A DNA stretch of 58,597 nt, from assembly GCA_963828175.1 (NCBI GenBank), contig CAWHFT010000126.1, positions 1 through 58,597 of the forward strand, written 5' to 3'. Source of the stretch: an uncultured Spirochaetota bacterium. GTDB taxonomy: Bacteria > Spirochaetota > Spirochaetia > Treponematales > Rectinemataceae. The notes under the pieces are model-generated. The model was given only the letters and a program-made list of their open reading frames with translations. It was not told where the DNA came from and did no database searches. A program made the translations under genes and the position numbers. Positions 39,900 to 58,597 of the stretch are shown here, piece after piece. Every line of letters starts with the position of its first letter. The stretch's first letter is position 1.

Positions 39900-39905
39900 A
39901 CCCTG

Positions 39906-40418
39906 CTAGCGGAGGATCTTGATCCTCTCGCCCTCGGGTAGGGCGACCTCGCGGCAGTCGCGGGCGTAGAGGCGCTCCGGCAGGGCCACGAGGCAGCTGA
40001 CGCTCCCCGCCCCCAACGCGAAGGGGCCGTGGTGCCAGACCCCAGGCCTGAGGACGACCATTGTCCCCCTGGGCACGAGGTAGGCCTCGGCGGCCGCCCC
40101 CGGGAACGCGGCTCCCGGGACGGCGGGGGCGACGTGGATGATGACGTCGCCGTCGATGGGCATCAGCGCCTCGCAGGCGGCGTCGTGGTATTCCGAGGCG
40201 TCGACCACCAGGGGTCGAGGGAAGACGCGGCACACTCCGAAGGAGGCGACGCTGTCGGCTCCCAGGCCGGATTGGAGCATGTCCCTGAAGAACTCGATGG
40301 GCGCGGCGCCCAAGTGGAACGAGGGAGGGTTGTTGGCCTCGGGGTCGAGCATGTTCGCGTAGCTGCCGAAGCGGCCGAAGGACTCGGGCTCGAGCTTCTT
40401 GCAGGAGATTTCCCTCAT
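39906..40418 (-). CDS. Ureidoglycolate-lyase-like cupin protein
   Basis: MREISCKKLEPESFGRFGSYANML... with a VPRGTMVVLRPGVWHHGPF cupin-type strand pattern, ~170 aa. Confidence 0.55.
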   Translation of the reverse strand: MREISCKKLEPESFGRFGSYANMLDPEANNPPSFHLGAAPIEFFRDMLQSGLGADSVASFGVCRVFPRPLVVDASEYHDAACEALMPIDGDVIIHVAPAVPGAAFPGAAAEAYLVPRGTMVVLRPGVWHHGPFALGAGSVSCLVALPERLYARDCREVALPEGERIKILR

Positions 40419-40420
40419 GA

Positions 40421-41167
40421 TCAGAAGCCCGAGATGTCTTGCGCGAGGCCGATGACGACCATCTCCGACACGCAGCCGCCCTTGGTGAGGGCGCAGGTCT
40501 GGTAGACCATATCGGCGAAGTGCTCGGGCCGCACGGCCAAGGACTCGTCCCAATCGAACTTGGGCACTCCCGCCGCCGCGCCCTGGAACCCGGTATTCGA
40601 GCCGCCGGGAACGAGGAGGGTGACGCCGACGCCATGGGGTCTGAGCTCGGTGTATAGGCACTTCGTGAAGGCGTTGACGCCGGCCTTGGCGGCCGAATAG
40701 ACGGTCCAACCCGGCCAGGAGCGCCGGTCGCAGACCGAGGAGACGTTGACGACCTTGCCCGACTTCTGCTTCTTGAACTGCGGCGCGAACGTGCGGCAGC
40801 TCATGATCACGCTCATGAGGTTGAGGTCGAGGATCTTCTGGGCGGTAGCGTTGTCGATCTCCTCGACGGGCGATACCTTAACGGCGCCGCCCGCGTAGTT
40901 GATGAGAAAGTCCACCTTGTTGAAGGCCGCTAGGGTCTTGGAGAGGGCCGTCTCGAATGTGCCCTGCTTGGTCGCGTCGCCGACGAAGGAGACGACCTTG
41001 GCTCCCGACTTCTCGCAGACCGCCGCGGTAGCCGCGAGGCCTTCGGGGTTGAGATCGAACATGACGAGATTGCAGCCTTCCTTCGCGAACAATTCGGCAG
41101 TGGCCTTCGCGAATCCCGACGCGACACCGGATATGACGGCGACCTTGCCTTTTATGCTTTCGCTCAT
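40421..41167 (-). CDS. SDR family oxidoreductase
   Basis: GKVAVISGVASGFA (TGxxxGxG-like), NVSSV and YSAAKAGV (YxxxK). Confidence 0.85.
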   Translation of the reverse strand: MSESIKGKVAVISGVASGFAKATAELFAKEGCNLVMFDLNPEGLAATAAVCEKSGAKVVSFVGDATKQGTFETALSKTLAAFNKVDFLINYAGGAVKVSPVEEIDNATAQKILDLNLMSVIMSCRTFAPQFKKQKSGKVVNVSSVCDRRSWPGWTVYSAAKAGVNAFTKCLYTELRPHGVGVTLLVPGGSNTGFQGAAAGVPKFDWDESLAVRPEHFADMVYQTCALTKGGCVSEMVVIGLAQDISGF

Positions 41168-41254
41168 ATGTTCCTCCTCGTTCAGTTATCCCAAGATAGC
41201 TCTGTCGCCAGAATCGTAACATACGACATGACAAACGTCAAGTTAAAGCTGAGC

Positions 41255-42016
41255 TCAGCGCATGAGAAGGCCGCCCGAGACGTTGACGACACTGCCGGTA
41301 ATATAGGCAGCCTGCCTCGAGCAGAGAAACACTGCCGCCGCGGCGACCTCGGCGACCTCGGCGAATCGGCCAGCGGGGATACGAGGAAGGTATTTCTCGG
41401 GAGCGGCCTTGTACTTGCGCTCCGCCATTTCAGTCATCATGAGGCCTGGAGCCAGAGCGTTCGCGGTTATGCCGAGCGCGGCCGTCTCCCTGGCAAGCGA
41501 CACCGTGAAGGAGACGATGCCTCCCTTGGATGCGTCGTACGCGGCCTGACCGCTCGTCGACCCCGAAAAGGCCGAGACCGACGACACGTTGACGATTCGG
41601 CCCGGGGGCCCCTTGCCTTCCAGCCTCCGCAGAAACTCCCTGCAGGCCAGGAAGGTGCCGGTCAGGTTGGCGCCGAGGGTCTCTTCCCATGCCTCAAGGC
41701 TTGTCGTCGCAGTGGTTCCATGGGGACAGATGGCCGCGTTGTTGACGAGCACGCGCATCGCGCCCAGCTTCGACTCAGCCTCGCCGAACATTTCCGCCAC
41801 CTCGGCCTCGGAGGAGAGGTCGCCCCGAAGGACGACCGTCGACTCTGCGCCGGCCTGGGCGCAGGCGGCCGCGGCATCCTGGGCCTCGGCAACTCGCTCC
41901 CTGCAGGCCAGTGCGACCCGCGCGCCCTCGGCGGCGAGGGCGAGGGCGATCGCCCTGCCCAGTCCCCTGGATGCCCCGGTGACGAGGCAGGGCACGCCCG
42001 CGAGTCCCAGGTCCAC
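41255..42016 (-). CDS. SDR family oxidoreductase
   Basis: CLVTGASRGLGRAIA, NNAA, VSSVSAF and YDASKGGI. The GTG start at 42016 is 2 nt after the SorC stop. Confidence 0.85.
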   Translation of the reverse strand: MDLGLAGVPCLVTGASRGLGRAIALALAAEGARVALACRERVAEAQDAAAACAQAGAESTVVLRGDLSSEAEVAEMFGEAESKLGAMRVLVNNAAICPHGTTATTSLEAWEETLGANLTGTFLACREFLRRLEGKGPPGRIVNVSSVSAFSGSTSGQAAYDASKGGIVSFTVSLARETAALGITANALAPGLMMTEMAERKYKAAPEKYLPRIPAGRFAEVAEVAAAAVFLCSRQAAYITGSVVNVSGGLLMR

Positions 42017-42018
42017 CG

Positions 42019-42988
42019 TCAGGCCCCTTTGGCCTGCATGAGGTCCAAGGCCGACTTCGCGGTCTGTTCGTCCAGGATGAAGGTTCGCACCATGCCGGTC
42101 CTGAGCACGCCGTTGATGGCCTCGGCCTTGTCCGCGCCCGATGCCATGATGAGATTGTTCTGGGCGCCGCGAAGCTCCTCGACGGGAACGCCGACGATCC
42201 TCTCGTAATAGTCGTCGACGAGGAACCCGCCCGAGCGGTCGAAATATCGCGCGCAGATGTCGCCTACAGCGTCGGGGGATTTGAGGTGGGTGAACACCTC
42301 GTGCTCGCCCGCGTAGGACTCGCGGTCGATGGTCTCGCCCAGGGGGATAGCCCCGATGCCCGACACGATGACGTCCATCGACTTCCAGGCCTGACGAAAT
42401 AGTCCTCATGGAGGAAGAGTTGAAATACATGTCCCGCTCCTCCTTGTCGTTCGCGAGGGCCGGCGCGTGTATGAACGAAGGCGCACCACCCGCCTTTTCC
42501 GCGAGGAGGCGCACCATCTCGTTGATTTGGAAATAGGGGGCGGTCTGGTGGCTGCCCCCGATGAGGGGGACCACTGAAAGGTCGGCTCTGGGCTCCTGCG
42601 GCTGGAAAGCGTGCACGAACTCGTAACTGGTACGTCCCCAGGCCAGGCCGACGGTCTGGCCGTTCTTGAGAATCTTCGCGAGGATATCCGCGGAGCGCTG
42701 GGCCACGAGCTTGCGCTGGGCCTCCGGGTCGCGCGACGAGGTCGGGATCACGACGAAGTCAGTCCCGGGATAGAACGACGCCAGGAGCCGGGAGAGCTGA
42801 TCGTCGTTGAGGAAGGGATCGCGCACCGTGATCTCCACGATCCCCGTTTCCTTGGCCTCGGTGAGGATCATCGAGATGAGGGAACGGGAGATGCCGATCT
42901 GCCTGGCGATGTCCTCCTGCTTGAGACCTTCCAGGTAGTACATCTTCGAAACCTTCACTACCAGGGAGACGTCCAGCCTCGAACTCAT
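42019..42988 (-). CDS. SorC/DeoR-type sugar-binding transcriptional regulator, frameshifted as assembled (+1 between ~42379 and ~42405)
   Basis: N-terminal HTH YYLEGLKQEDIARQIGISRSLISMIL. The C-terminal part MDVIVSGIGAIP...NLIMASGADKAEAINGVLRTG is in the adjacent frame. Length is 970 nt (3n+1). Confidence 0.8.
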
Positions 42989-43065
42989 TCCGCTACCTCC
43001 GACGATTCGTTTGGGCGGGAGTATATGACCGTCGGCGCCTCGAATGCAACGCGGACTGACGGTCT

Positions 43066-44125
43066 TTATGGCCTGAGCACCACTTTTACGGCGGTCCCCG
43101 AAGCGATGACGTCCATCGCCTTGGCGAAGTCCTTCATCGGCATCTCGTTCGTGACTATCCTCGAGAAGAGATCCTTTTTCGCCTCGAGCAGGCCGACCGC
43201 CTCGCGGATGTGCGCCGGAGTCGAATCGGAGGTCCCGAAGACGACGAGCTCGCCGTAGTGGATGGTCCTCGAGTTGACTTGCAGCATTTCCTCGCCCTGA
43301 GGCAGGCTCGCGAAGAACGAGACGAAGCCGCCCTTCCTCGCGTACATCGGCAACTTGGCCTGGGTAGGCCCGTGAGGCGCGGTGACGACCACGAGATCGA
43401 AACCCTCGCCCTGGGTGAGGCCTTGGTAGGCGCCGTCGATTTGGCCGGGCTTCGAGCACCTCGCCTAGGCCCAGGGACTTGGCGAGATCGAAGCGGGCTC
43501 CGGGGAACTCCACGCACACGACCTTCTCCGCGCCCTTGGCCCGGGCGGCCACAGCGTGGAGAAAGCCCAGGGGGCCGAGGCCCAAAACTAGGACGTTCTT
43601 GATCTCCGCCATGGGCAGTCTGGAGAGCCCGTTCACGACGCAGGAGAGGGGCTCGGCGATGGCCGCGATCTTGGCGTCCAGGCTGCCGACGACGGCCAGG
43701 TGTCCCATGCGCACGGCTTTGGCCGGCACGCGGACGTAGGGAGCCATGGCCCCCGGATAGTGGAAGCCGATCGCCTCGGCCTGGCGGCAGAGGTTGGAAT
43801 GCCCGGAGCGGCAGTAGCGGCACTCGCCGCAGCCTATCGTGGTGGCCATGACGACCCGCTCGCCGATCTTGGGCGAACCGGGCAGAGCGGTTCCGCCTGC
43901 CGCGGTCACCGCGCCCACGAACTCGTGGCCCATGATCATCGGCGGCTTGATCCTCGGATTGCCCTTGTTGTAGGACTTTATGTCGGTGCCGCAGATCGCG
44001 CAGGCCTCGACCTCGACGAGGAGGTCTCCTGCCTCGAGGGCGGGCGGCGCCTCCATCCTCTCGATGCGTACGTCCTTCGGAGCGTAATAGACGACGCAGT
44101 CGCCGCCCTTTGCTTTGGCGCCCAT
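43066..44125 (-). CDS. Zn-dependent alcohol/polyol dehydrogenase (MDR family, sorbitol-DH-like), frameshifted as assembled (+1 near 43442)
   Basis: CAICGTDIK, GHEFVG, CGECRYCRSGHSNLC and LGLGPLG. The C-terminus ...GFDLVVVTAPHG...VKVVLRP is in the adjacent frame. Length is 1060 nt (3n+1). Confidence 0.8.
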
Positions 44126-44901
44126 CAGTGCATCTCCCTGCCGCCGGTGATGTTCAGGGCCTGACCGGTACAGTACTCGCCCTTCGCCGCAAGGAAGAGG
44201 ACGTAGTCGACGATGTCCTGGATATCCGTAAGCCTCTTGAGAGGAATCTTGGCGGTGAACTTCTTGACCACTTCGTCGCGAGGCATCTTCAGGTTTTCCG
44301 TGTAGCCCTTGCTGACTTCAGACCATACTCCCGTGGCGTCGGTGATGCCCGGGCAGATGGCGTTGACCTTGATATTGAAGTCGGCGACCTCGAAGGCCAC
44401 GGCCTGGGTCATGGCGATGACCGCGCCCTTGGCCGCGGAATATGGAACCATGAGGGACGAGCCCGTCTTCCCCGACTTGGAGGAGAAGTTGATGATCTTG
44501 CCGTCCATCGCCTTCTTCATTCCGGCCAGGACTCCCTGGATGCAATAGATGGAGCCGTGGACATTGACCCGCATCTGCTTATCGAGGATCTCGGGCGTAA
44601 CCTCCTCGATGGGGCGCTGGTCTACGATGCCCGCCGTGTTTACGAGCGCGTAGACGGCGCCGAGCTCGCCAGCGATCCTCTCGAAGCAGCCCAACACCGC
44701 TTTTTGATCGGTGATGTCCAGGACGTAGCCTTTGGTGCCACTTCCTATCCGCTGCGCCTCGGTAAGGACTGCGGGATTTATATCGATCATCGCGACCCGC
44801 GCACCCTCGGCCACGAATGCCTCGGCGATAGCGAGACCGATGCTCCGAGCGGCGCCGGTGACCACGCAGGTCCGGCCTTCGAGCTCTTTCGGCTTATCCA
44901 T
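44125..44901 (-). CDS. SDR family oxidoreductase (sorbitol-6-phosphate-dehydrogenase-like)
   Basis: CVVTGAARSIGLAIA, NTAG and YSAAKGAV. The start MDKPKE follows AGGAGG. Confidence 0.85.
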   Translation of the reverse strand: MDKPKELEGRTCVVTGAARSIGLAIAEAFVAEGARVAMIDINPAVLTEAQRIGSGTKGYVLDITDQKAVLGCFERIAGELGAVYALVNTAGIVDQRPIEEVTPEILDKQMRVNVHGSIYCIQGVLAGMKKAMDGKIINFSSKSGKTGSSLMVPYSAAKGAVIAMTQAVAFEVADFNIKVNAICPGITDATGVWSEVSKGYTENLKMPRDEVVKKFTAKIPLKRLTDIQDIVDYVLFLAAKGEYCTGQALNITGGREMH

Positions 44902-44994
44902 ATCGTTCCTCCTGCATATTAGTAGTAACATTTTCCATGACATATGTCAATAGCGAGAACCTGACTATATTCCTTTACTCAGGTCATTTTTTGT

Positions 44995-46485
44995 TTAGCC
45001 GCTCTTCTCGCCCAAAGACGCGGCGATTTCGCGGAACCGCGAGTAGGCATCGTCCAGGTCCGCCGCATCGGCAGGTGCCGGCTCGTAGGCCGCCCTGACC
45101 CGCGACATGGCTGCTTCGGCCTCCTCGAGCGAGGCGTAGCGCCCCGTCGCGACCGCGGCGGCGGCGGCGATGCCACGGGCTCCGGCCTGGGAAGCATCGC
45201 AAGTCTCCACGGGACGCCCGAGGGCCGAGGCGAAGATCCTGCACCAGGCCTCGCTGGCCGCTGCGCCGCCCGAGAGCAGGATCCGGCTCCTGTCCAATCC
45301 GGCGCGGCTCAGAATCTCGAGATGCGCTCTGTGGGCGAAGGCGACTCCCTCGTACACCGCCCGCAGCAGGTGGAATATCCCATGGGATGCCCTCATCCCG
45401 ACGAAGGCCGCATCGGTTCCCGGCGCGATGTGCGAGCGGTGGATGAAGGGCAGATAAATGAGGCCATCGGCCCCTGCGGGTATCCTCGATACGCCCTCGT
45501 TGATCCGCTCATAGAGAGCGTACCTGTCGATCCCGGGGCAGAGTTCCTCGATTCCGGCGATTATCCAGGCGAGATTTCCAGCCGACGTGGCGCTCGATTC
45601 CACATAGGCGTAGCGGCCCGAATCGGGGCCAAGGGAGGCCTTGGTCGTAGGAGCCGTCTCGAGGAGAAGCGGGGAGAATGCGCTATTTATGTTCCAGGTT
45701 CCCGCGATGAGGGAGTAGGCTTCTTCGGTCATGGACCCCGAGCCGACGGCGCAGGCGATCACGTCGAACATGCCCGCGATCACGGGCGTCCCCGCGGGAA
45801 TGCCGGTCTCGGCTGCCGCCTTCGCGGTCACAGCCCCAACGATAGCGGCGCTCTCGTGGACCGGCGGAAGCATGCCCTCGGCCTCGGGCGCTCCAAAGGT
45901 CTCCAGGATGCCGGGGTCGTATCGGCCCGAACCCAGGTCGAGAAGGGCATTGTTGCTCGCCTCGGTCCTATCGGTGGTCGCCGTTCCGGAAAGCCTGAAC
46001 GTGATCCAGTCTTTGGCTCCGAAAGCCCAGCGTATCTTCCGGTAGGACGCCGGTTCCTCTCGCTTTATCCAGCACAGCAGGGGGAGGGACTGCCCGGCCC
46101 AGGGGTGGTGCCTGGTCAGCTCGTAGCGGCTTCTGCCCTCCCGCTTCCAGAGCTCGACTATGGCCTCGGCGCGGCGGTCCATCGAGGTGATGGCGGCGCG
46201 CGCCGGCCTCCCCTCGGCGTCCGCGGGATAGAGCCCCCCGCCGTGGCCCGAGACGCCCACGGCGGCGATGCGGCCAGGCGCCGAGCCCGCCTTCGCTATC
46301 GCGTCTCTTGCGAGGCCAGCGGCCGTGGACCAGGCTTCCTCCATCCCGATCTCGCTCGCCTCGCCCCGCGTCGACAAGGGCGTATCGGCTGAAGCCTCGG
46401 CTAGCTGAGTTCCTCGGTCGTCGAATACGGCGGCCTTCATCGCCGTGAGGCCGCAGTCGATGCTGAGGTAGCGGGACTCGCCCAT
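44995..46485 (-). CDS. FGGY-family carbohydrate kinase
   Basis: YLSIDCGLTAMKAAVFD, VGVSGHGGG and the C-terminal LLSGGAAASEAW block. Confidence 0.85.
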   Translation of the reverse strand: MGESRYLSIDCGLTAMKAAVFDDRGTQLAEASADTPLSTRGEASEIGMEEAWSTAAGLARDAIAKAGSAPGRIAAVGVSGHGGGLYPADAEGRPARAAITSMDRRAEAIVELWKREGRSRYELTRHHPWAGQSLPLLCWIKREEPASYRKIRWAFGAKDWITFRLSGTATTDRTEASNNALLDLGSGRYDPGILETFGAPEAEGMLPPVHESAAIVGAVTAKAAAETGIPAGTPVIAGMFDVIACAVGSGSMTEEAYSLIAGTWNINSAFSPLLLETAPTTKASLGPDSGRYAYVESSATSAGNLAWIIAGIEELCPGIDRYALYERINEGVSRIPAGADGLIYLPFIHRSHIAPGTDAAFVGMRASHGIFHLLRAVYEGVAFAHRAHLEILSRAGLDRSRILLSGGAAASEAWCRIFASALGRPVETCDASQAGARGIAAAAAVATGRYASLEEAEAAMSRVRAAYEPAPADAADLDDAYSRFREIAASLGEKSG

Positions 46486-46488
46486 CGC

Positions 46489-47550
46489 CTAAAGCCTCAG
46501 GCGGTCCCGCGCCGTGGGTAAGACCTCCCGGTTCACCGCCGTCCTGGGCTCGGCCCCGGAGAGGAACTTCGCGAGCTCGGCCGCGAGGAGCTTGGGACAA
46601 TTGTAGAAAGCGTCGTTAGAACCTCCCGCCATGTGGGGAGTGACCGTTACGTTGGGCAGTCGCACGAGCGGATAGTCGGCTCCTGGCGGCTCGAGGTCGA
46701 AGACGTCGAGGGCGGCGCCGGCGATTCGGCCCGCCTCGAGTGCCTCGCACAGGGCCTTTTCGTCGACGAGGGCCGACCTGGACGTATTCACCAAGTAGGC
46801 GGTCCTCTTCATCATGGCGATGAGTTCGCCTCCGATCATGCCTTCGGTCTCCTTGGTGAGCCTCGCGTGGACCGTCACGAAATCCGACTCGGCCATGAGC
46901 CTGGGCAGCGTAACCATCGATACGCCTGCGGGCGGCTCCTTGACGAAGGGGTCGTAGGCGAGTATCTCGACGTCGAAGCCCGAGAGCCGCTTGGCGACCT
47001 TGCGCCCTATCTCGCCGAGGCCGACGATGCCGACAGTCTTGCCCGGCATGTCCGGTATCATGCCCGAGTTGGGATACTCCCTAATCCAACGGCCTTCCTT
47101 GAGGCCGGCGTGCCCTCGGGCTATGTTCCTCGCCTCGGCGAGGAACATCCCGACCGCGAAATCGGCCACGGCGTCGGCGTTCCGGCCCGGGGTGTTGAGG
47201 ACGAGTATGCCTCGGGCGGTCGCCGCGGCGACGTCGACATTCTCGTAGCCGGCGCGCAGCACGCCGAGCACCTTGAGGCTCTTCGCGGCGGCGATGAGGC
47301 CGGCCGAAGCGGGGCAGAACTGGGTGACGAGTATGTCCGCGTCCCGAACCGCCTCGTAGACTTCGGGCGGGGGCTCGTAGGCGGCCGCCCCGCCCTTCTC
47401 GACCTTGAGGTTGATGGCTTGGAGCTCCTGGAAGCCCGAGAGCTTCCAGTCGAAGGTGACGACCTTGACGCCGAGGGCCTCGACCTGGGCGAAGCCTTTC
47501 TTTATGAACTCGTGGGGAATGAAGAGGTCCCCGATCCCTACTAGTTTCAT
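46489..47550 (-). CDS. D-isomer-specific 2-hydroxyacid dehydrogenase family protein
   Basis: GKTVGIVGLGEIGRKVAKRL (NAD fold), LVNTSRSALVD and TPHMAG. The start MKLVGIG follows GGAGGA. Confidence 0.85.
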   Translation of the reverse strand: MKLVGIGDLFIPHEFIKKGFAQVEALGVKVVTFDWKLSGFQELQAINLKVEKGGAAAYEPPPEVYEAVRDADILVTQFCPASAGLIAAAKSLKVLGVLRAGYENVDVAAATARGILVLNTPGRNADAVADFAVGMFLAEARNIARGHAGLKEGRWIREYPNSGMIPDMPGKTVGIVGLGEIGRKVAKRLSGFDVEILAYDPFVKEPPAGVSMVTLPRLMAESDFVTVHARLTKETEGMIGGELIAMMKRTAYLVNTSRSALVDEKALCEALEAGRIAGAALDVFDLEPPGADYPLVRLPNVTVTPHMAGGSNDAFYNCPKLLAAELAKFLSGAEPRTAVNREVLPTARDRLRL

Positions 47551-47567
47551 GCTCAAAATTCCTCCGA

Positions 47568-50405: not shown

Positions 50406-51892
50406 TCACCGCCCGTGACTATATTGAGGATCTTCTCGCTGTCGAGATCGCATCCGTTCCTCATGGTGGTCTTAATAACGCCGTCGTAGAGGAGGTAGAT
50501 CGTATCGCAGATGTTGACGATCTCCGGCAATTCTGAGGAGAAGAGGATGATCGATTTCCCTTCCTTGGCGAGGCCGCGGACTATCGCGTAGATTTCGCTC
50601 TTGGCCCCCACGTCGATGCCGCGCGTGGGCTCGTCGAGCATGAGCAGGTCCGCCTCCGCGAACAGGCATTTGGAGATTACGACCTTCTGCTGGTTGCCCC
50701 CGGAAAGCTTCGAGACCTCCTTCTCGGCGCTGTTCGTCGCAATCCTGAGCTTGTCGATGTAGTCTCTGGTTATCTTCCTCTCCCTAGCGGCGTCTATGAA
50801 GCCACTGCGGGATATCGCCTTCATGTTCATGGCGGGGATGTTCGCCCGGATCGTGAGGATCGTGAAAAGCCCCTGGGTCCTGCGCTCCTCTGGCACGAGG
50901 GCGATGCCCGCGTCGATCGCCTTGTCGGGGGAGGGCGCCAGCCTCTTTCCCTTGAATAGGATTTCCCCCTCGTAGTCGTCCGCGCCGTAGATCGCCCGCG
51001 CGAGCTCGGTCTTGCCGGCTCCGACTAAGCCGTAGAATCCGACGATCTCGCCCGCGTGGGCATCGAAGGATATGTCGTTCAGCTTCTGGTTGGACAGGTT
51101 GCGCACATGCAGGATGACGTCCTCGCAGGCCTCTTCCTTGGCGCTGTACTGCTCGAATACGGTCTTTCCTATCATCATCTTCACCAGCTCGGAGCGATCC
51201 TTGATCTCGGCGATCGGCTTCGTGCCGATGTGCCCGCCGTCACGCATGACGGTTACGTAGTCTCCCAGCTGGAATATCTCGTCCAGGCGGTGCGAGATGT
51301 AGAGAACGGTGACGCGCTTCTCGCGGAGCCCCTTGATGATCGCGAAGAGCCTCTGTATCTCGCTCTCGGAAATGGCGGCCGTCGGCTCGTCCATGATGAT
51401 GATTTCAGCATCTGTTGCGACGGCCTTGGCTATCTCGACGATCTGCTTCTTCGCGACGCTTAAGCTCCCGACGAGCTGCTTAGGATCGATGGACGGCTCG
51501 ATGCTCTTCATCACCTCGACGATCTTGGCGATCTTATCCGTCTTCCGGAGGAAGCCGAACGTGGTATCCTCCATGCCTAGCGTCAGGTTTTCCTCTACCG
51601 TCAGCTGGTCCACGACGTTCAGCTCCTGGAAGAGTGTGCTGATTCCCTTCTGCTTGGCCTCTTTCGTGGAACGGGCGTAGTACTCCTGGCCGTTCAATAG
51701 GATCTTTCCGCTCGTCCTCTGGTCAGCCCCGGTGAGGATCTTGATGAGGGTGGACTTGCCTGCCCCGTTTTCCCCCACCAGGCAATGGACGCTGTTGCGC
51801 TTTATGTCGAAGCTGACGTTGTTGACGGCCCTGACGCTGGGGAAGTCCTTCACGAGGTCGCGTATCTCCACGACGTTGCCGATCTGTTCCAT
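50402..51892 (-). CDS. Sugar ABC transporter ATP-binding protein with duplicated NBDs (RbsA/MglA-like)
   Basis: Two NBDs: GENGAGKST / IIIMDEPTAA and GLVGAGKTE / LSGGNQQKV / LLMLDEPTRGID. Confidence 0.9.
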   Translation of the reverse strand: MEQIGNVVEIRDLVKDFPSVRAVNNVSFDIKRNSVHCLVGENGAGKSTLIKILTGADQRTSGKILLNGQEYYARSTKEAKQKGISTLFQELNVVDQLTVEENLTLGMEDTTFGFLRKTDKIAKIVEVMKSIEPSIDPKQLVGSLSVAKKQIVEIAKAVATDAEIIIMDEPTAAISESEIQRLFAIIKGLREKRVTVLYISHRLDEIFQLGDYVTVMRDGGHIGTKPIAEIKDRSELVKMMIGKTVFEQYSAKEEACEDVILHVRNLSNQKLNDISFDAHAGEIVGFYGLVGAGKTELARAIYGADDYEGEILFKGKRLAPSPDKAIDAGIALVPEERRTQGLFTILTIRANIPAMNMKAISRSGFIDAARERKITRDYIDKLRIATNSAEKEVSKLSGGNQQKVVISKCLFAEADLLMLDEPTRGIDVGAKSEIYAIVRGLAKEGKSIILFSSELPEIVNICDTIYLLYDGVIKTTMRNGCDLDSEKILNIVTGGE

Positions 51893-51979
51893 GCCCGCCC
51901 TCCGCCGCTATGTAGAGGAGGGCCCCCGCGGAGGGGCCCTCCCGACTCATCGTAGACCGAGATCCCGGCTGGAAGCGGC

Positions 51980-53008
51980 TTATTTCAGCTTCGTGCCGAA
52001 CTCCGTATTGAGCCACTTCACCGTATCGGCGCGCGGCATGGAGTAGTAGGAAATGGTGTAGGCTTTGTAGAAGAATTCCTTCGCGGGCTGAGTGACCTGG
52101 TCCGCGAGCCCGTTCTTGACGTCCATCATGAGCTCGATCCTGCCCTGTCCGGTCTCGATGGGCGGGAGGCCTATGGAGAGCTTGAGGGAGCTGTTGGGAT
52201 CGTAGACCTGCTTGAACTGGACTTCGTCGAAGTCGCAGCTGCAGACGATCTCGGTGAGGGGCACGCCGTTCTTCATCTTGCCGCGGCCGGCCTGGTTGAG
52301 GGCCGCCATAACGCCGACGCAGAGGTCGGAGGACTCGGCGTCGATGAGGTTCACCTCCGGGTGCTGGGCGGCGAGGTCGGTGATGATCTGCTTGGCCGCG
52401 TCCGGACCCTTGCTCGAGTCGAGGCAGCCGAGGTCCTTAGCCTTGGGATCCACGGAAAGGACGCCCTTCACGAAGGGGCCGGTGCGGCCGGACTGGACTT
52501 CGGTGTTGTTTGGCCAGCCGAGCTCTACCATTACGATCGGCTTGTTCGGGAAGGCTTTCTTCCACTGGGTGGCCATCTCGGCGCCCATGGTGAAGGAAAC
52601 GTGCGCCTCGTCGGAGCGGGCGACGGGGATGCCGGTATCGGCGATCGGGCTGAAGAAGGCAGTCATTACGATGCCCTTGCCGATCGCGGCCTCGATGCCG
52701 GGCTTGGCGGCCTCGCCGTCCCAGATGTGCAGCGTCGCCATGTCCATGCCCTGGGCCACGACTTGGTCGATATTGGAGGTCATGAGCTCGCTGTCGGACT
52801 TGCCGTCGAACGCGAACACGTCGGCGCCGTATTTCTCCTTCGCGTACTTCTTGGCGGCCGCGTACTGGGCCTGGTGGAACCCATTGCTCAGGTCCGACAC
52901 GAAAAACGCGATCTTGAGCGGCTTTGCCTGGGCCACCATCGCCGGGACGAATGCTAGGGCCATTGAGATGACCAGCAAGAACACGACTACCCGAGATTTC
53001 TTGTTCAT
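51980..53008 (-). CDS. Periplasmic sugar-binding protein (RbsB-like, family 2)
   Basis: Signal peptide MNKKSRVVVFLLVISMALAFVPAMVAQA. GAGGAGGAGGA lies upstream. Confidence 0.85.
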   Translation of the reverse strand: MNKKSRVVVFLLVISMALAFVPAMVAQAKPLKIAFFVSDLSNGFHQAQYAAAKKYAKEKYGADVFAFDGKSDSELMTSNIDQVVAQGMDMATLHIWDGEAAKPGIEAAIGKGIVMTAFFSPIADTGIPVARSDEAHVSFTMGAEMATQWKKAFPNKPIVMVELGWPNNTEVQSGRTGPFVKGVLSVDPKAKDLGCLDSSKGPDAAKQIITDLAAQHPEVNLIDAESSDLCVGVMAALNQAGRGKMKNGVPLTEIVCSCDFDEVQFKQVYDPNSSLKLSIGLPPIETGQGRIELMMDVKNGLADQVTQPAKEFFYKAYTISYYSMPRADTVKWLNTEFGTKLK

Positions 53009-53076
53009 CTTGTCCTCCTCCTCGATCTGTGGAATCCCAGTATGGATACCCTCCGGGATACCATCATAGCGGCTGT

Positions 53077-53997
53077 CTAGCCGATAAGCTGAGTCTGGAA
53101 TGAGTTTTGACATTTGTCAAGACAAAAATTAAAGGATTTCCACGCGGTATCCGGTTTCGAACTCTCCCGCGGGGAAAGCGAGATAATGCCCTCTTTCTCG
53201 GCGAGCTCGCCCGACGCGTCGCTCATATCGGGTATGCCGTGCCAAGGCTCGACGCAGACGAAAGGCGCGCCGCCGGGCTTCGACCAAACTCCGAGATAAG
53301 GCACGCCGTCCGTAACGACGCGCACCGCTCGCGAGTTGCGGCTGTTCGCGATCGCGAATTCCCGAGATCTCGGATTCTTGAATATCATGATCCCGTCGTC
53401 GAAACAGTGTCGCGTGAGGCTAAGGACTCGGCTGTTCTCCATGGCCTCGGCGGTCTTGCCCGCGACGATCACTCCGTCCTTGAAGAACCAGCGCTCGAGG
53501 TTCTCCTCGAGTTCGAAGAAGACGTAGTAGTTCTCCAGCGCCCCTCCGGCGAATGGGACCACGAAGGCCGGGTGCGAGCCGATAGAGAAGAGCATGCTGG
53601 TCCGTCCGGCGTTCCGGACTATGTAGCGCACGTCGATTCCCGAGCGCGTAAGGGCGAAGATGACGGTCAGGACGAAATCGAAGGGGTACCCAGCGCGGGT
53701 CGCCTCGCTCGAAACGAGCCGCAGCTCCGCCGACTCGGAGTCCGCGCGAGTCACGGTGAACTCGCTTCCACGGGCGAAGCCGTGCGACGGCAGCTTGTAC
53801 GCGCGGCCCTCGTGCCGGTACTCGCCGCCCTTGAGCCCGCCGATGACCGGGAAGAGCAGCGGCGCGGATCCGTTCCACCAGGCCGGGTCGCCGTTCCATA
53901 TGTGTTCTTGGCCGGTAGACGCGTTCGATAGGCTCTTGAGCTCGGCGCCGGTCTCCGCGATGCGCGCGTTCCAGTGCCCGTTGGCGAGGGAGATCAT
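53077..53997 (-). CDS. Aldose 1-epimerase family protein
   Basis: SAPLLFPVIGGL, LPSHGFAR and CVEPWHG blocks. Confidence 0.8.
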   Translation of the reverse strand: MISLANGHWNARIAETGAELKSLSNASTGQEHIWNGDPAWWNGSAPLLFPVIGGLKGGEYRHEGRAYKLPSHGFARGSEFTVTRADSESAELRLVSSEATRAGYPFDFVLTVIFALTRSGIDVRYIVRNAGRTSMLFSIGSHPAFVVPFAGGALENYYVFFELEENLERWFFKDGVIVAGKTAEAMENSRVLSLTRHCFDDGIMIFKNPRSREFAIANSRNSRAVRVVTDGVPYLGVWSKPGGAPFVCVEPWHGIPDMSDASGELAEKEGIISLSPRESSKPDTAWKSFNFCLDKCQNSFQTQLIG

Positions 53998-54006
53998 CAG
54001 TCCCCC

Positions 54007-54816
54007 TTAGTAGCTTCCGCTGCCTTCGGCTCCGGTGACGATCGCCACGCTGGAGACGGCCCCTAGCCGGTTGGCGCCTGCGCCCAGGAATGCGAGGGCC
54101 GTCTTGTACGTTCGTACACCGCCGCTCGCCTTGACGCCCATTTCGCGTCCGACGACGGACCGCATGAGCTGGAGATCCTCTACGGACGCTCCGCCCCCCG
54201 AGAAGCCAGTACAGGTCTTGACGAAATCGGCTCCTGCCTTCTTCGAGATCTCGCAGGCCAGGACCTTCTCCTCCTGCGAGAGCAGGGCCGTCTCGATGAT
54301 GACCTTGAGGATCGTGCCGCCCCGCGTCGCCCGGCGCACGGCGCGGATGTCCTCTTCGACTCCCCGCAGGTCGCCGGACTTGAGCAGGCCGACGTTGATG
54401 ACCATGTCGATCTCGGACGCGCCGTCTTCGATCGCCTCCCGCGTCTCGAAGGCCTTGGAGCGGGAGGTCATCGCACCGAGGGGGAAGCCCACCACGGAGC
54501 AGACCTTGACGCCTGAGCCCTGGAGCTTGCGAGAGACGTAGGCGATCCGGCATGAGTTCACGCAGACGCTGTAGAAGCGGTACTTCAGCGCCTCCTCGCA
54601 GAGCTTGTCGAAGGCCTGAGTCGGGGCCTCGGGGCGGAGCATCGTGTGGTCGATGTACTTGGCGATGTCCGCGGGAGCGAGCGCGGGGACGGCACCTGCG
54701 CTGGTTGCGCCTGACGCAATTGCCGCCGAGGGCGCGGCCGCGGCCGAAGCCGCGGCGGGGCCCACGCGCGCGAGGACTTCCGAGACGATCTTCTCTATTA
54801 GCTGGTTCTGGTCCAT
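54007..54816 (-). CDS. deoC: Deoxyribose-phosphate aldolase with a ~50-aa N-terminal encapsulation-peptide-like extension
   Basis: VVGFPLG, ILKVIIET and DFVKTCTGF (Schiff-base Lys). The N-terminus is MDQNQLIEKIVSEVLARV followed by an Ala/Ser/Pro linker. Confidence 0.9.
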   Translation of the reverse strand: MDQNQLIEKIVSEVLARVGPAAASAAAAPSAAIASGATSAGAVPALAPADIAKYIDHTMLRPEAPTQAFDKLCEEALKYRFYSVCVNSCRIAYVSRKLQGSGVKVCSVVGFPLGAMTSRSKAFETREAIEDGASEIDMVINVGLLKSGDLRGVEEDIRAVRRATRGGTILKVIIETALLSQEEKVLACEISKKAGADFVKTCTGFSGGGASVEDLQLMRSVVGREMGVKASGGVRTYKTALAFLGAGANRLGAVSSVAIVTGAEGSGSY

Positions 54817-54839
54817 CGGGAAACTAAGCCTCCGTTGAG

Positions 54840-55313
54840 TTACGCGTCGGGGTACAGGATGCCCCGCTCGATCGCCGATATTTTATTAATCCGTACCAGA
54901 TGCCGCCCTCCGCCGAACCTGGTTTGAAGCCAGGTGCGCGCCATCTCGGCTAGCTGTCCCGCGTCGTGCAGGGGCCCCCCGAGAGAGAGTACATTGGCGT
55001 CATTGTGCTCGCGGCTGTTGATCACCGTCCGCAGGTCGTAGCAGAGCGCCGCGCGGATGCCCTTGATCTTGTTCGCTGCGATGCAGGAGCCGATTCCGGC
55101 GCCGTCGAGCACGATGCCTCTTTCGCAGTCGCCGCTGACGACGCGCCGGCAGACGGCCACCGCGATGTCGGGGTAGTCCGCGCGCTCGCCGTCGAGGCAG
55201 CCGACGTCCACCACTCGGTAGCCGAGCGTCCGCAGATATGCGGCGAGCGACTCCTTTTGCCCGAACGCGCCGTGGTCGGCTCCGATCGAAACGCTGCGCA
55301 CGAGGTCGCTCAT
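54840..55313 (-). CDS. rpiB: RpiB/LacA/LacB family sugar-phosphate isomerase
   Basis: IGADHGAF, DGAGIGSCIAANK, REHNDANVLSLG and GGRH. Confidence 0.9.
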   Translation of the reverse strand: MSDLVRSVSIGADHGAFGQKESLAAYLRTLGYRVVDVGCLDGERADYPDIAVAVCRRVVSGDCERGIVLDGAGIGSCIAANKIKGIRAALCYDLRTVINSREHNDANVLSLGGPLHDAGQLAEMARTWLQTRFGGGRHLVRINKISAIERGILYPDA

Positions 55314-55600
55314 GGCTCTTTACCCCTGTCCTCTATGTCGACGCGGTCCACGATGCCGCAGATCGCGGTTCGAACGGTCAAGGCCGACTCGTCCCCGATA
55401 ACCCAGCGTGCGGAGCCTCCCTCGTCGACGACCAGGACAAGATCGCCTATCCCGGCCTGCGCGCCGTCGACGGCGAGCATGACCTTACCCTTAGGCGCGC
55501 CGTCGGGGCCCACGGGCCTCACGACCAGCAGCTTTTTACCGACGTAATCGGCGTGCTTTTCCGTCGCCACCACGCTGGCTACGACCCGTCCAAGAGTCAC
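55310..55600 (-). CDS. BMC vertex protein (BMC-P, EutN/CcmL family), paralog 4
   Basis: (M)TLGRVVASVVATEK...LLVVRP...AVDGAQAGIGDLVLVV...AICGIVD. The GTG start overlaps the upstream TGA. Confidence 0.85.
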   Translation of the reverse strand: MTLGRVVASVVATEKHADYVGKKLLVVRPVGPDGAPKGKVMLAVDGAQAGIGDLVLVVDEGGSARWVIGDESALTVRTAICGIVDRVDIEDRGKEP

Positions 55601-55893
55601 GAGGCGCTCCCTCGCGGCTTCGCGCCCGCCGCGTTTACGGCATCCACCACGCCGAGGATGGCGGCGTCCAGCGGATTGAACCAGCCGTTGGGATTCGCCT
55701 GGGCGGCATCCTTGCCGGACTCGAACATCACGAGGTCGCTCTCCCCCGCCCGCGCCACGTCGAAGGCCACGATGGCCGGTCCCTCTTTCCTGCCGGTTTC
55801 GTCCACGGGCTGCACCAAAAGCAGCTTCAGTCCCCGGAAGCACTCGAGGCTCTGCGCGCATACTACCCTGCCGACGACTCTTCCCAGCTTCAT
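55597..55893 (-). CDS. BMC vertex protein (BMC-P, EutN/CcmL family), paralog 3
   Basis: MKLGRVVGRVVCAQS...LLLVQP...AFDVARAGESDLVMF...AILGVVD. ATGA overlap with the aldehyde dehydrogenase gene. Confidence 0.85.
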   Translation of the reverse strand: MKLGRVVGRVVCAQSLECFRGLKLLLVQPVDETGRKEGPAIVAFDVARAGESDLVMFESGKDAAQANPNGWFNPLDAAILGVVDAVNAAGAKPRGSAS

Positions 55894-57348
55894 ATGATCC
55901 TGAAAGAGTCCACCAGCGTGCAGCGCCGCTCGCGGGTGAAGGACCTCGCGCGCGTGATGCCCTCGCCGGTAGGGCTCGCGATCGTGAACGACGTGAAGCC
56001 CGCGCCGCCGTTTCCGAGACCGGCGAAACAAGGCCCGTTCTTGACGAATAAGGAGCAGTTCATGAGCTGCGCCATCCTGGACAGGTTCACGATATCGTGC
56101 GAGTGCATCATCGCCGTGTGGCGGAACCCGTGCTCGACCTTGAACGCGAAGTCGATCGCCTCGTCCACGCTCCTCATCCGCACGAGCGGCAGAACCGGCA
56201 TGAGCTGCTCGGACCATACCATCGGGTGGTCCGCGTTCACTTCCATGAGAAGGAGCCGAGTCTCCGGAGGGACGTCGATCCCTGCCGCGCGGGCGATCAC
56301 CGCTGCGTCCTTGCCCACCATGTCCTTGTTCGGCATCGTCGACCGCCCGGGCGGCGCGTCCTTGGACAGCGCGACGCGCGTGACCGCCTCGATCTGGCCG
56401 CCTGAGAGCTCGAAGGCGCCGTTCAGGCGCATCTCGGCCTTCAGTCGGTCGGCGATCGCCTCGACCGCCAGCACTTCCTTCTCGCAGACGCAGACGACGT
56501 TGTTGTCGAAGCTCGCCCCAGCGACGATGTCGCGGCCGGCCTTCGCGAGGTCGGCCGTCGCGTCCACGACGCAGGGCGGGTTACCCGGCCCGGCGCAGAT
56601 GGCCTTCTTGCCGCTCGCCATGGCTGCTTTGACGACTCCCGGCCCTCCCGTCACGACCAGGAGGGACACTCCGCCGTGCCGCATCAGCTCGGCGGCGCTT
56701 TCGATCGTCGGGGAGGCGACGGCGCATAGAAGGTTGCGGGGGCCGCCCGCCCCGACGATGGCGTCGTTGAACAGGCCTATGAGGCGGTTGGAAATTCCCT
56801 TCGCCCCGGGATGCACATTGAAAACGACGGAGTTGCCGGCGGCTATCATGCCGATGGAGTTGCAGGTGATCGTCGCGATGGGATTGGTGACCGGCGTGAT
56901 CGCGCCGATCACGCCCCAGGGCGCCCTTTCCACGAGCGTGAGCCCGTGCTCGTCCGTAAAGGCTGAGGGCTCGACGTCCTCGACCCCCGGCGTCTTGGTC
57001 GCCGCGAGGGCGTTCTTGGCCTGCTTGTCGCGGACGTTGCCCAGGCCTGTCTCCGCGACGGCGTCCGCGGAGAGGGACGCGTTGGCCTGGAGGACAGCCG
57101 CTCGGATGGCCTCGACGATGCATCGCCTTCCGTCCAGCGGCATGCGGACGAGCTCGCGCTGCGCCCGAGGCCGCGGCGGACACCGCGTCGTCGACGGAGC
57201 CGAAGACGCCCGGGATTATTGGCGCGGCCGGCGGGGGCGCGCTCGGCGCACCGTGGCCGTCCTCCATGCCTTTGAGGAGGGCCTGCATCTCGCTCGATCC
57301 CAGCAGCTGCGCGACGATGCCCCGGATCTCCGCCGCCATGTCAGCCAT
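55890..57348 (-). CDS. CoA-acylating aldehyde dehydrogenase (EutE/PduP-like) with an N-terminal encapsulation peptide, frameshifted as assembled (+1 near 57160)
   Basis: ITPVTNP, ICAGPGNPP and FDNNVVCVCEKE (catalytic Cys). The N-terminal 63 aa (MADMAAEIRGIVAQLL...PAAPIIPGVFGSVDDAVSAAASGA) are in the adjacent frame. Length is 1459 nt (3n+1). Confidence 0.85.
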
Positions 57349-57634
57349 GGTACTTCCAGCAGTACTCGCCGCCGCGGTCGATCTGGTCCACTATTGCGAC
57401 GATCAGCGTGTCCATAGGCTTATCCTCGGTCCGCTCGGTCCAGCGGCAGCCTGAGCCTTGAGCCAGAAGCACGAGCTGCCCCCGATCGGCGTCCACCATG
57501 TCGAGGGCCACCAGGTATTCGCCCCGGCCTTGTCCGCCGTGGTCGCAGTCTTCCACGAGGAGCCATTTGGCTCCTTCGACCTTGTCCGATCGCCGCGTGG
57601 CGACGACCGTGCCCCGCACCCTGGCGAGGGTCAT
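57341..57634 (-). CDS. BMC vertex protein (BMC-P, EutN/CcmL family), paralog 2
   Basis: MTLARVRGTVVATRR...WLLVED...ALDMVDADRGQLVLLAQG...LIVAIVD. Confidence 0.85.
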   Translation of the reverse strand: MTLARVRGTVVATRRSDKVEGAKWLLVEDCDHGGQGRGEYLVALDMVDADRGQLVLLAQGSGCRWTERTEDKPMDTLIVAIVDQIDRGGEYCWKYHG

Positions 57635-57933
57635 GACTCGGCCGCCTTGTCGTATACGAGCCGGCCGTCATTTTCGATGTTGTCGACGATCGCGATGATC
57701 GTCGCGTCCGACGGCTTGCCTTTCGTCGTGTCGGTCATGCGGGCGCTGGAGCCGGTGACATAGAAGACTATCTCCCCGGCGTTGGCGCCCACGCTGTCGA
57801 TGGCCACGACGAAATCGCCCTTGGGCTTCATCGTCGCCGCGTCGATCCTCTCGAGGAGCAGGAGCCTCAGGCCTTCCATCGAGGGAGCCTTCTGCGTCGA
57901 GACGACCGTTCCCCTAACCCGAGCAAGCTGCAT
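57631..57933 (-). CDS. BMC vertex protein (BMC-P, EutN/CcmL family), paralog 1
   Basis: MQLARVRGTVVSTQK...LLLLER...AIDSVGANAGEIVFYVTG...IIAIVD. ATGA overlap with paralog 2. Confidence 0.85.
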   Translation of the reverse strand: MQLARVRGTVVSTQKAPSMEGLRLLLLERIDAATMKPKGDFVVAIDSVGANAGEIVFYVTGSSARMTDTTKGKPSDATIIAIVDNIENDGRLVYDKAAES

Positions 57934-57959
57934 CGGTCTTGAGTCTCCCCGGCCTTCGG

Positions 57960-58277
57960 CTATTTCGCCTGGGCCGCGGGTTTTCGCCCCAGAGGCAGCG
58001 CCGCGTCGACGGACTCGTGCGGGCGGGGTATCACGTGAGTGCTTACGATCTCGCCCACCTTCTCCGCCGCGCGCGCGCCGGCATCGACTGCGGCGCGGCA
58101 AGCCGCCACGTCTCCGCGGACAATCGCGGTCACGTATCCGCCGCCGATCTTCTCGTAGCCCGCCAATTCCACTTTCGCTGCTTTCACCATCGCGTCGGCG
58201 GCCTCGACCATCGCCGCGAATCCGCGTGTCTCGATCATGCCGAGGGCATCAGACTGGTTCTCCGACATCGTATCCAT
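57960..58277 (-). CDS. BMC hexamer shell protein (BMC-H, PduA/EutM-like)
   Basis: [28 protein letters not shown]...[23 protein letters not shown]...[10 protein letters not shown]. Confidence 0.9.
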
Positions 58278-58300
58278 CCTTTCGCGACGCTCTAGCCGCG

Positions 58301-58594
58301 TCAGATTCTCTGGGCGCCGGCGGCGAGCTCACGCCCGCCGAGACTCCCTAGGCGAGCCTCCACGACCTTGCGAGCCTCGATCACCTCGGCTTCTTCGCCG
58401 GAGATATAGACCCGGCCAAAGGCGCCGAAGCCGAGCACCTCGACTATGTTGATCCTCGAGGTCTTCTCGGCCTCGTTTGCGGCGTAGTAGGCGTAGCCTG
58501 CAGGCTCCACCTCGAGCACGTACAGCGTGTCGCCGCGGAGGACCATGTTCCCGTGCCTCACCTTGTTGATCAGCTGGGCGTGATGGTCGCTCAT
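58301..58594 (-). CDS. Probable circularly permuted BMC-domain shell protein (EutS/PduU-like)
   Basis: [30 protein letters not shown]...[22 protein letters not shown] resembles the permuted BMC fold order. The start lies 3 nt from the window edge. Confidence 0.55.
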
Positions 58595-58597
58595 GTT

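Follow-up and report, generated by a model that had tools for sequence, protein, structure and literature searches.

At one end of contig CAWHFT010000126.1 (assembly GCA_963828175.1), an uncultured Spirochaetota bacterium of the family Rectinemataceae carries a block of minus-strand genes in which a bacterial microcompartment (BMC) of the sugar-phosphate-utilising (SPU) class adjoins genes for the import, oxidoreduction and phosphorylation of a sugar. The window analysed is the full extent of this contig, 58,597 bp, and the locus is therefore cut at its upstream end. Stop-to-stop translation and the open reading frame (ORF) listing gave 23 co-directional genes between 58597 and 39906, which encode shell proteins, a CoA-acylating aldehyde dehydrogenase (AldDH), an RpiB-family protein and deoxyribose-5-phosphate aldolase (DERA, gene deoC), followed by the proteins of the sugar module. 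On the best explanation, the block holds the last two-thirds, in the downstream direction, of a metabolosome locus of type SPU2, and a module for sugar catabolism that belongs to the same regulon is fused to it; the general model in which the module supplies the SPU2 BMC is given a probability of about 0.7.

Linkage of the sugar module to the microcompartment genes

Loci of relatives were found by look-ups of DeoC and kinase homologues and by a metagenome scan with the kinase profile; the closest named homologues belong to Spirochaetaceae and Spirochaetia metagenome-assembled genomes (MAGs). Adjacency of SPU2 and module genes was found in four arrangements, the first being the contiguous one of the window. 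In L001/L002, which encode a DeoC 94% and a kinase 91% identical to those of the window, and in L089, a reverse-strand chemoreceptor (MCP) gene sits between BMC and module, its product in L001/L002 carrying a Peripla_BP_4 sensor. The module lies upstream of the BMC in L003/L004 (kinase 78% identical), and in L006 (kinase 65%) it is followed by a second, reverse-strand ABC system and then by the BMC. L128/L129 (DeoC 81-82%) have two short-chain dehydrogenase (SDR) genes before the BMC and, after it, a ribulose-phosphate-3-epimerase-family gene, a mutarotase, an IclR regulator and an SDR-cupin-ABC set. The association recurs in a distant lineage (L101/L102, kinase 47%), where genes for three BMC-P, DeoC, AldDH, two BMC-H and PduL alternate with genes of the module, all on the same strand; an iron-dependent alcohol dehydrogenase (Fe-ADH) is among the flanking module genes, RpiB is absent, and the encoded BMC resembles the SPU4 type. 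This locus (L102 1-21455 / L101) adjoins a YesM/YesN-type two-component system.

In blastn comparison the window and L001/L002 are collinear save for a 2.9-kb deletion with its junction at ~53132-53135. The deletion (equivalent to L001 11676-14593) removes the opposite-strand chemoreceptor gene and a small ORF, and because of it the epimerase ORF of the window is about 17 codons longer and extends into the former transporter promoter region. A Peripla_BP-GGDEF sensor is also encoded nearby in relatives, and the sensors near the module suggest that chemotaxis and c-di-GMP signalling may be directed toward the same sugar.

Six to seven module copies that lack a BMC (L007, L094, L096, L108, L109 and L110, with L107 as a variant) carry a deoC without an encapsulation peptide (EP) between the genes for the Zn-dependent alcohol dehydrogenase (Zn-ADH) and the regulator; the EP-less deoC product of L007 scores 282 bits on TIGR00126. 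The pattern is complementary, the module deoC being present when the BMC is absent and absent when an EP-tagged deoC adjoins, and this placement is the strongest argument that the product of the module is a DERA substrate. In L128 a second, EP-less deoC (12474-13172) lies just downstream of the BMC operon.

A promoter/operator motif is common to both parts. Upstream of the binding-protein gene, 125 nt are near-invariant among loci whose coding DNA is 84-89% identical, and they hold the palindrome TTGACAAATGTCAA (53107-53120, minus strand, 112 nt upstream of the gene), which is conserved in L001, L002, L003, L006 and L089; the 112-nt leader of this gene (53009-53120) diverges in more distant relatives. 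Further copies were placed by the motif scan before SDR2 (TTGACATATGTCAT, 44937-44950) and before SDR4 (TTGACGTTTGTCAT, 41228-41241, overlapping the sigma-70-like match TTGACG, 17 nt, TACGAT), both on the minus strand. With at most two mismatches, TTGACA-NN-TGTCA(A/T) has three matches in the 58.6-kb window, all of them in intergenic gaps of the module. A second half-site, ATGTTA, follows about 5 nt after the motif, -10-like hexamers lie 17 nt from TTGACA, and all module variants examined retain the sites. In L001, L003/L004 and L006 the form TTGACATATGTTA(C/T) is found ~60 nt ahead of the first gene for BMC-H; in L102 it precedes the BMC-containing operon. Control loci with other regulators or no module gave 0-1 matches, which is the background level. 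The sole match in L012 (TTGACATATAACAT at 5440) has no second half-site and may lie just upstream of the BMC operon of that locus. The SorC-family protein encoded in the module is the likely regulator of these putative sites. The proposal of the initial annotation that the transport, dehydrogenase and kinase genes feed the BMC is strongly backed by the synteny conserved through rearrangement, the complementary deoC and the shared operator-like motif.

Intergenic spacing within the block ranges from -8 (overlap) to +93 nt, and the block is closed by two minus-strand terminator-like hairpins (39765-39905), recognised by folding energies and z-scores, one directly after the cupin stop codon (39862-39905, -23.6 kcal/mol, z -5.9) and one beyond it (39765-39820, -34.5 kcal/mol, z -8.0). 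A consensus terminator scan inside the block gave nothing above background, and no hairpin there is comparable to the closing ones. The early description of 23 genes on one strand, with short gaps and a terminator only at the end, was borne out by the ORFs, the spacing and the hairpin scan; a single operon of 18.7 kb is ruled out by the internal promoter/operator sites and by the split arrangement in relatives. Since such sites precede the binding-protein, SDR2 and SDR4 genes, and since the opposite-strand chemoreceptor gene separates BMC and transporter genes in the closest relatives, the sequence describes several co-regulated transcription units with one operator type. In this contig no terminator stands between the BMC and the transporter genes, so that transcription may run on from the former into the latter. 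An exact look-up of the BMC-H protein, made for contig extension, returned no match, and the upstream part was read from the relatives, which carry beyond the cut point of the window one additional BMC-H gene and then the operon promoter. An Rfam search of the window, including the 112-nt leader, found a tRNA-Thr elsewhere as its sole match and no riboswitch.

The SPU2-type microcompartment

The aldolase gene (54007-54816, minus strand; PF01791) encodes a DERA with an N-terminal helix and linker. Its product reaches 271 bits on the TIGR00126 deoC equivalog (cut-off 117), residues D137, K171 and K200 are invariant across 21 aligned sequences, and the catalytic domain shares 58-59% identity with housekeeping Streptococcus DeoC; because the equivalog is reached, the Asp/Lys/Lys triad kept and the housekeeping enzyme this similar, the protein is on sequence grounds an orthodox, bona fide DERA. 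Residues 1-18 (MDQNQLIEKIV.EV.AR) are near-invariant in 20 BMC-associated homologues and are followed by a variable Ala/Ser/Pro linker, and both extension and linker are missing in the non-BMC DeoC of L007. The AlphaFold2 (AF2) model predicts a helix at residues 3-17, a disordered stretch at residues 18-41 (pLDDT <50) and a confident TIM barrel. Judged by conservation and by this model, the N-terminus looks like an encapsulation-peptide architecture; a hydrophobic-moment scan for encapsulation peptides gave no discrimination.

The RpiB-family gene (54840-55313, minus strand; PF02502 157 bits, NF004051 155 bits) encodes Asp70 in place of the catalytic Cys, since alignment with C. thermocellum RpiB (3HE8) sets LDGAG against ICGTG and Asp70 opposite that Cys. 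The Cys-to-Asp exchange holds for all SPU RPIs according to Dwyer, Sutter and Kerfeld 2024 (PMC11585597), whose RPI was almost inactive yet complexed with DERA, and the window protein is probably an SPU-type RPI that serves as a packaging partner of DERA. An erythritol/threitol-type pathway was rejected, as the DerI model (cut-off 240) gives RpiB no more than 68 bits. The EutE-type CoA-acylating AldDH (55890-57348, minus strand; PF00171) is frame-shifted by one extra base at ~57166. Its base-repaired product of 485 aa is 90% identical to that of L001 (633 bits on NF011927), holds the motif VCVCEKE and keeps the ~60-aa N-terminal extension, taken here as its encapsulation peptide. Pfam and NCBIfam models thus agree with the early recognition of the SPU signature set of EP-tagged DeoC, RpiB and CoA-acylating AldDH.

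Tested against the BMC models PF00936 and PF03319, the BMC-H and four BMC-P ORFs of the minus strand passed. The hexamer protein BMC-H (57960-58277, 105 aa) scores 108 bits on PF00936 and 127 bits on an EutM-like model, and a second BMC-H gene is present upstream in L001 and L003. The four PF03319 genes form two adjacent pairs, the first at 57631-57933 (97 bits) and 57341-57634 (87.5 bits) and the second at 55597-55893 (72 bits) and 55310-55600 (79 bits, GTG start). The ORF at the contig end (58301-58597, minus strand), at first taken as a stand-alone permuted BMC gene, proved to be a tandem BMC-T(dp) gene of the CcmP-like kind of which the contig end leaves the 3' half: it reaches 17.9 bits on PF00936, under the cut-off of 24.5, and is 97% identical to residues 117-214 of the 214-aa CsoS1D_N/CcmP-like BMC-T(dp) of L001, which together identify it as the C-terminal domain (residues ~117-214). 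The L001 protein matches CsoS1D_N and scores 272 bits on the NCBIfam CcmP equivalog (cut-off 340), as expected for a non-carboxysomal relative.

In the survey of Sutter et al. 2021 (Nat Commun, Supplementary Data 2), SPU2 occurs mostly in Bacteroidetes and Spirochaetes, has AldDH, pfam01791 and pfam02502 as its only enzymes with phosphotransacylase (PTAC) rare, and combines in its shell a BMC-P triplet with a further BMC-P copy, BMC-H in one or two copies, a BMC-T(dp) of the CcmP-like clade and a BMC-T(s). By sequence, the BMC part of the window fits an ordinary new member of this subtype. It shares with SPU2 loci such as that of Spirochaeta LUC14_002_19_P3 the host phylum, the set of AldDH, pfam01791 DERA and pfam02502 RPI with N-terminal EPs, the BMC-P triplet and extra copy, the one or two BMC-H, the CcmP-like BMC-T(dp) and the lack of PTAC. 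What sets it apart from the published description is the adjoining transporter/kinase/dehydrogenase module with its common promoter/operator motif, and a BMC-T(s), one of the SPU2 components, was found neither in the window nor in L001, L003 and L129, whose loci are complete; a gene elsewhere in the genome is conceivable. Genes of PF06130, PF00121 and PF00465 (PTAC, triosephosphate isomerase and alcohol dehydrogenase) are absent from the block and from the BMC part of L001/L003. A PduL-type phosphotransacylase had been anticipated upstream; relatives have none within 5-10 kb, which is typical of SPU2. Neither the 23 genes nor the loci of relatives include PduCDE, EutBC or glycyl-radical enzyme families. 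A place outside the PDU, EUT and GRM classes therefore stands, and the locus fits SPU2, a subtype catalogued before and common in Spirochaetes.

The view that SPU BMCs had never been characterised experimentally is outdated, as an SPU DERA and RPI were purified and DERA activity was shown in 2024 (PMC11585597). The SPU6 locus of Chloroflexi bacterium GWB2_54_36 studied there resembles the window in the long N-terminal extension and D/K/K catalytic residues of DERA, in the combination of AldDH with a BMC-P triplet, in the replacement of Cys66 of RPI by Asp, and in the proposed chemistry, from 2-deoxyribose-5-phosphate (dR5P) to glyceraldehyde-3-phosphate (G3P) together with acetaldehyde and on to acetyl-CoA. 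It differs in that its AldDH has a C-terminal EP and belongs to another branch, its regulator is of the GntR/UTRA rather than the SorC type, and it lacks an import or kinase module; the window RPI, in turn, has no N-terminal EP.

The sugar module and its candidate substrate

Pfam matches supported the initially assigned gene content of the module (ABC importer, aldose epimerase, Zn-ADH, 2-hydroxyacid dehydrogenase, FGGY kinase, SorC regulator and cupin), with four SDRs instead of the five first counted; all genes are on the minus strand. A LacX-like aldose-1-epimerase or mutarotase (53077-53997; PF01263 98 bits), whose L001 orthologue gives 165 bits with PDB 3DCD, is followed by the periplasmic sugar-binding protein of the CUT2/ribose type (51980-53008; PF13407 84 bits), which has weak matches in the PDB to ribose-binding proteins only. 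The importer is completed at 48352-51892 by an ATPase with two PF00005 domains (50402-51892) and two PF02653 permeases (49377-50405 and 48352-49380). A 12-bp GC-only hairpin (GGGAGGGCCCCU...GGGGGCCCUCC) lies between the binding-protein and ATPase genes (51893-51979) and is of the kind commonly linked to attenuation within an operon, or to mRNA stabilisation, by which more binding protein is made; folded as a whole, the gap shows no significant structure (z -1.7).

The enzymes that follow are SDR1 (47568-48323; PF00106 182 bits, below every equivalog cut-off), a D-2-hydroxyacid dehydrogenase family enzyme (46489-47550; PF02826 201 bits) whose nearest solved structures are glyoxylate reductase and PGDH, the FGGY carbohydrate kinase (44995-46485; PF00370/PF02782), SDR2 (44125-44901; PF13561 160 bits) and a Zn-dependent polyol/threonine-dehydrogenase-like enzyme (43066-44125; ADH_N and ADH_zinc_N in two frames, with one extra base at ~43452). 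Beyond these lie the SorC/DeoR-family sugar(-phosphate)-responsive regulator (42019-42988; PF04198 halves in two frames, one extra base at ~42396), SDR3 (41255-42016; PF13561 180 bits), SDR4 (40421-41167; PF00106 158 bits) and a metal-type cupin (39906-40418) related to ureidoglycolate lyase and DUF4867 (PF04115 29 bits, PF16161 16 bits). DUF4867 proteins often adjoin or are fused to FGGY kinases and have been proposed to act on ketoses (PMC11968277). The cupin has a one-His motif 1 (H78-x4-E83-x6-G90) and a motif 2 of PG-x2-H129/H130, which are consistent with a metal site like the reported His/Glu/His of the DUF4867 protein SqvB. For the binding protein, kinase, cupin, 2-hydroxyacid dehydrogenase, SDRs and epimerase, searches of NCBIfam, Pfam and PDB sequences gave family-level assignments only; the kinase, for instance, scores 210 bits on the XylB equivalog (cut-off 380) and 168 on LsrK (cut-off 528).

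In the pathway proposed here, the CUT2 system would import an aldose or polyol, the LacX-like mutarotase would anomerise it, and the SDRs, Zn-ADH, 2-hydroxyacid dehydrogenase and DUF4867-like cupin would interconvert it in the cytosol, after which the FGGY kinase would phosphorylate the product to dR5P (most likely) or a very close DERA substrate. This would enter the shell and be cleaved by DERA to G3P, which exits, and acetaldehyde, which AldDH would trap as acetyl-CoA. Because no lumen-targeted PTAC or alcohol dehydrogenase is encoded, acetyl-CoA/CoA and NADH/NAD+ would have to pass in and out of the shell, for which the gated pore of BMC-T(dp) is the presumed route, as suggested for cofactor exchange by Dwyer et al. 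2024 (PMC11585597). The RpiB-like protein would act mainly as packaging partner of DERA, and the SorC-family protein would repress all units until the pathway sugar phosphate builds up. As to the imported sugar, the guess that needs the fewest assumptions is free 2-deoxy-D-ribose, or else a deoxy-pentose or pentitol related to it. A hint of ketose-phosphate intermediates may come from L128/L129, where the ribulose-phosphate-3-epimerase-family gene (10821-11495) lies immediately 3' of the EP-tagged deoC.

Parts of this scheme have counterparts in known systems. In the PVM of Planctomyces limnophilus (Erbilgin et al. 2014) the sugar is likewise imported, isomerised and phosphorylated in the cytosol, and the aldehyde released by an aldolase is consumed by an acylating AldDH in a shell with several BMC-P paralogues; there, however, a class II aldolase acts on fuculose-/rhamnulose-1-phosphate and yields lactaldehyde, PTAC and acetate kinase are present, and a BMC-T(dp) is lacking. 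The enterobacterial lsr (autoinducer-2) operon also combines a repressor of the SorC family with an FGGY kinase, an ABC importer of the CUT2 type and an enzyme of the class I aldolase superfamily that acts on the phosphorylated product, whereas the window encodes a true DeoC rather than LsrF, together with six dehydrogenases. An lsr/AI-2 system was rejected on the scores (LsrK 168 against 528 bits, LsrR 91 against 486), and no LsrG or LsrF was found.

A narrower reading holds that the module salvages free 2-deoxy-D-ribose together with its oxidised, reduced and epimeric derivatives from damaged DNA, so that the organelle would still be of the DNA-detritus type with an importer added. It can draw on an orthodox DERA, a ribose-type importer and the mutarotase gene adjoining deoC, an arrangement akin to the deoQKPX genes of Salmonella, where DeoM is a deoxyribose mutarotase. 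Taken together, these genes and deoR-dra-nupC-pdp of Bacillus subtilis likewise offer a SorC-family regulator beside deoC and a mutarotase tied to deoxyribose use, and the repaired regulator of the window matches B. subtilis DeoR (131 bits) as closely as K. pneumoniae SorC (121 bits), its closest relatives. Against these likenesses, deoxyribose requires a kinase only, the known one being of the PfkB and not the FGGY type, and nucleoside phosphorylase and transporter genes like those of the B. subtilis and Salmonella systems are absent here; the six conserved dehydrogenases and the cupin are also left unexplained. The regulator reaches 182 bits on the DeoR equivalog NF053881 (cut-off 420) and lacks the lysine of the DeoR 'VVQLKGG' motif, which is reportedly the residue that forms a Schiff base with dR5P; with the equivalog unreached and this effector Lys replaced by Ile, a Bacillus-type DeoR regulon was rejected. 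Overall, salvage of deoxyribose and its derivatives is regarded as rather unlikely.

Also unlikely is an undescribed de novo route by which an imported non-nucleoside, non-deoxy sugar or polyol would be converted to dR5P. Speculatively, such a route would run by oxidation to a keto-sugar and elimination by the lyase-like cupin, then by ketoreduction through the SDRs, Zn-ADH and 2-hydroxyacid dehydrogenase and phosphorylation by the FGGY kinase. If it were true, the SPU BMCs of these bacteria and of the Firmicute-like lineage with an SPU4-like shell would be the terminal stage of a sugar fermentation and not DNA-scavenging organelles, and the pathway would in effect cleave a pentose to acetyl-CoA and G3P, much as a phosphoketolase route does.

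Alternative readings, contig context and significance

Several observations weigh against the feeder model in general. Three genes, the core AldDH and the regulator among them, are frameshifted in this sequence. Module copies without deoC or BMC within 10 kb exist (L008, L103) and, conversely, SPU2 loci in GTDB genomes have, among the matches listed, no module genes within 10 kb and unrelated neighbours, including a MAG from the Spirochaetales whose BMC-H, T(dp) and RpiB are 75-89% identical. The six dehydrogenases would be superfluous for direct use of deoxyribose, and the feeder enzymes all score below curated equivalogs while the binding protein has no informative solved relative, so that the path to a 2-deoxy sugar phosphate is chemically unexplained. 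The BMC promoter lies outside this contig and co-regulation is seen in relatives only, by motif only, and the regulator has Ile at the Lys position of DeoR.

In a rival reading the two parts would be uncoupled neighbours, the BMC degrading dR5P derived from nucleosides by a phosphorylase and phosphopentomutase and the module handling an unrelated polyol or sugar in the same island. SPU BMCs are among the most widespread types (>280 loci in 26 phyla), and DNA scavenging, with dR5P derived from DNA, is the published substrate model for all SPU types and still assumed in current work; growth by use of SPU has not been shown for any organism, and supply from DNA detritus is a hypothesis. The scan of GTDB genomes with the DeoC profile gave many SPU and housekeeping deoC loci, none of them with the module among the matches listed; the lack of the module in most SPU2 loci, module copies without deoC or BMC nearby and the opposite-strand gene between both parts in L001/L002 speak for this reading. 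The adjacency nevertheless persists through four rearrangements and recurs with a different SPU subtype, modules that lack a BMC hold a deoC of their own, always in the same place, both parts share the promoter/operator motif, and no nucleoside-catabolic gene was seen in any locus examined. Uncoupled neighbours are therefore considered distinctly improbable, and the feeder model is retained.

The genes for AldDH, Zn-ADH and the SorC regulator, as sequenced, each hold one extra, frame-shifting base relative to two or three orthologues, at ~57166, 43452 and 42396, respectively. Without that base they encode full-length products again (485, 352 and 322 aa), which share 90%, 97% and 88% identity with orthologues, and no further damage is present. 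The assemblies of relatives, which have Flye-style contig names, carry frameshifts of their own in other genes, namely in the binding protein and permease of L002, and the L001 contig has a 292-aa kinase fragment. Since each gene has a single lesion and relatives carry different frameshifts elsewhere, the three are probably consensus (assembly) errors, short of proof. Programmed frameshifting was rejected because the sites have no common slippery motif and the orthologues are in frame. All three insertions create TCG (CTTC-GG to CCTCGGG, GCT-GG to GCTCGA and TTT-GC to TTTCGT), two of them with an adjacent substitution, and they resemble a systematic consensus or base-calling error, maybe at a modified motif. 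The HATPase-like anti-sigma gene at 38792-39370 is also apparently split over two frames. A decaying pseudogene cluster, in which AldDH, Zn-ADH and regulator are truly broken and no functional BMC pathway exists, would account for three 1-base frameshifts in 18.7 kb and a further apparent one in the HATPase gene, and is very improbable given the single lesion per gene, the old frame open and 88-97% identical to orthologues beyond each shift, and the different frameshifts in other genes of relatives from long-read-style assemblies, which point to consensus errors.

Directly downstream of the block, a partner-switching-type signalling set on the minus strand (35238-39370) comprises a SpoIIE-family phosphatase (694 aa), an MCP-signal-domain protein, an HATPase_c_2 anti-sigma-like kinase and a small ORF (38473-38853) without a Pfam match, and has its own near-consensus promoter at 39446-39419 (TTGACA, 16 nt, TATAGT). 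Elsewhere in the contig, a plus-strand phosphonate C-P lyase cluster lies at ~19000-26500 (PhnI 434 bits, a double ABC-ATPase of PhnK/L-like type and a PhnM-like amidohydrolase), the tRNA-Thr(CGU) at 13363-13436, and G+C is 0.51-0.57 over 28000-38000 against 0.59-0.67 in the remaining contig.

A co-regulated feeder module and an alternation of free and encapsulated DeoC are found neither in Sutter et al. 2021 nor in Dwyer et al. 2024 (PMC11585597), and full-text searches on microcompartments and deoxyribose-phosphate aldolase with FGGY or spirochaetes yielded no description of them. These two features are apparently what is new; the BMC itself belongs to a known subtype, and nothing is overturned. 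Typical SPU2 loci stand alone and give no clue to the substrate that feeds them, and this clade makes the SPU substrate question directly testable. Its binding protein, its kinase, its regulator together with the defined putative operator, and matched versions of one pathway with free and with encapsulated DeoC are reagents with which both the identity of the substrate and the benefit of encapsulation can be asked. The clade also illustrates how an existing catabolic operon may take up a BMC when its cytosolic aldolase is exchanged for one with an EP.

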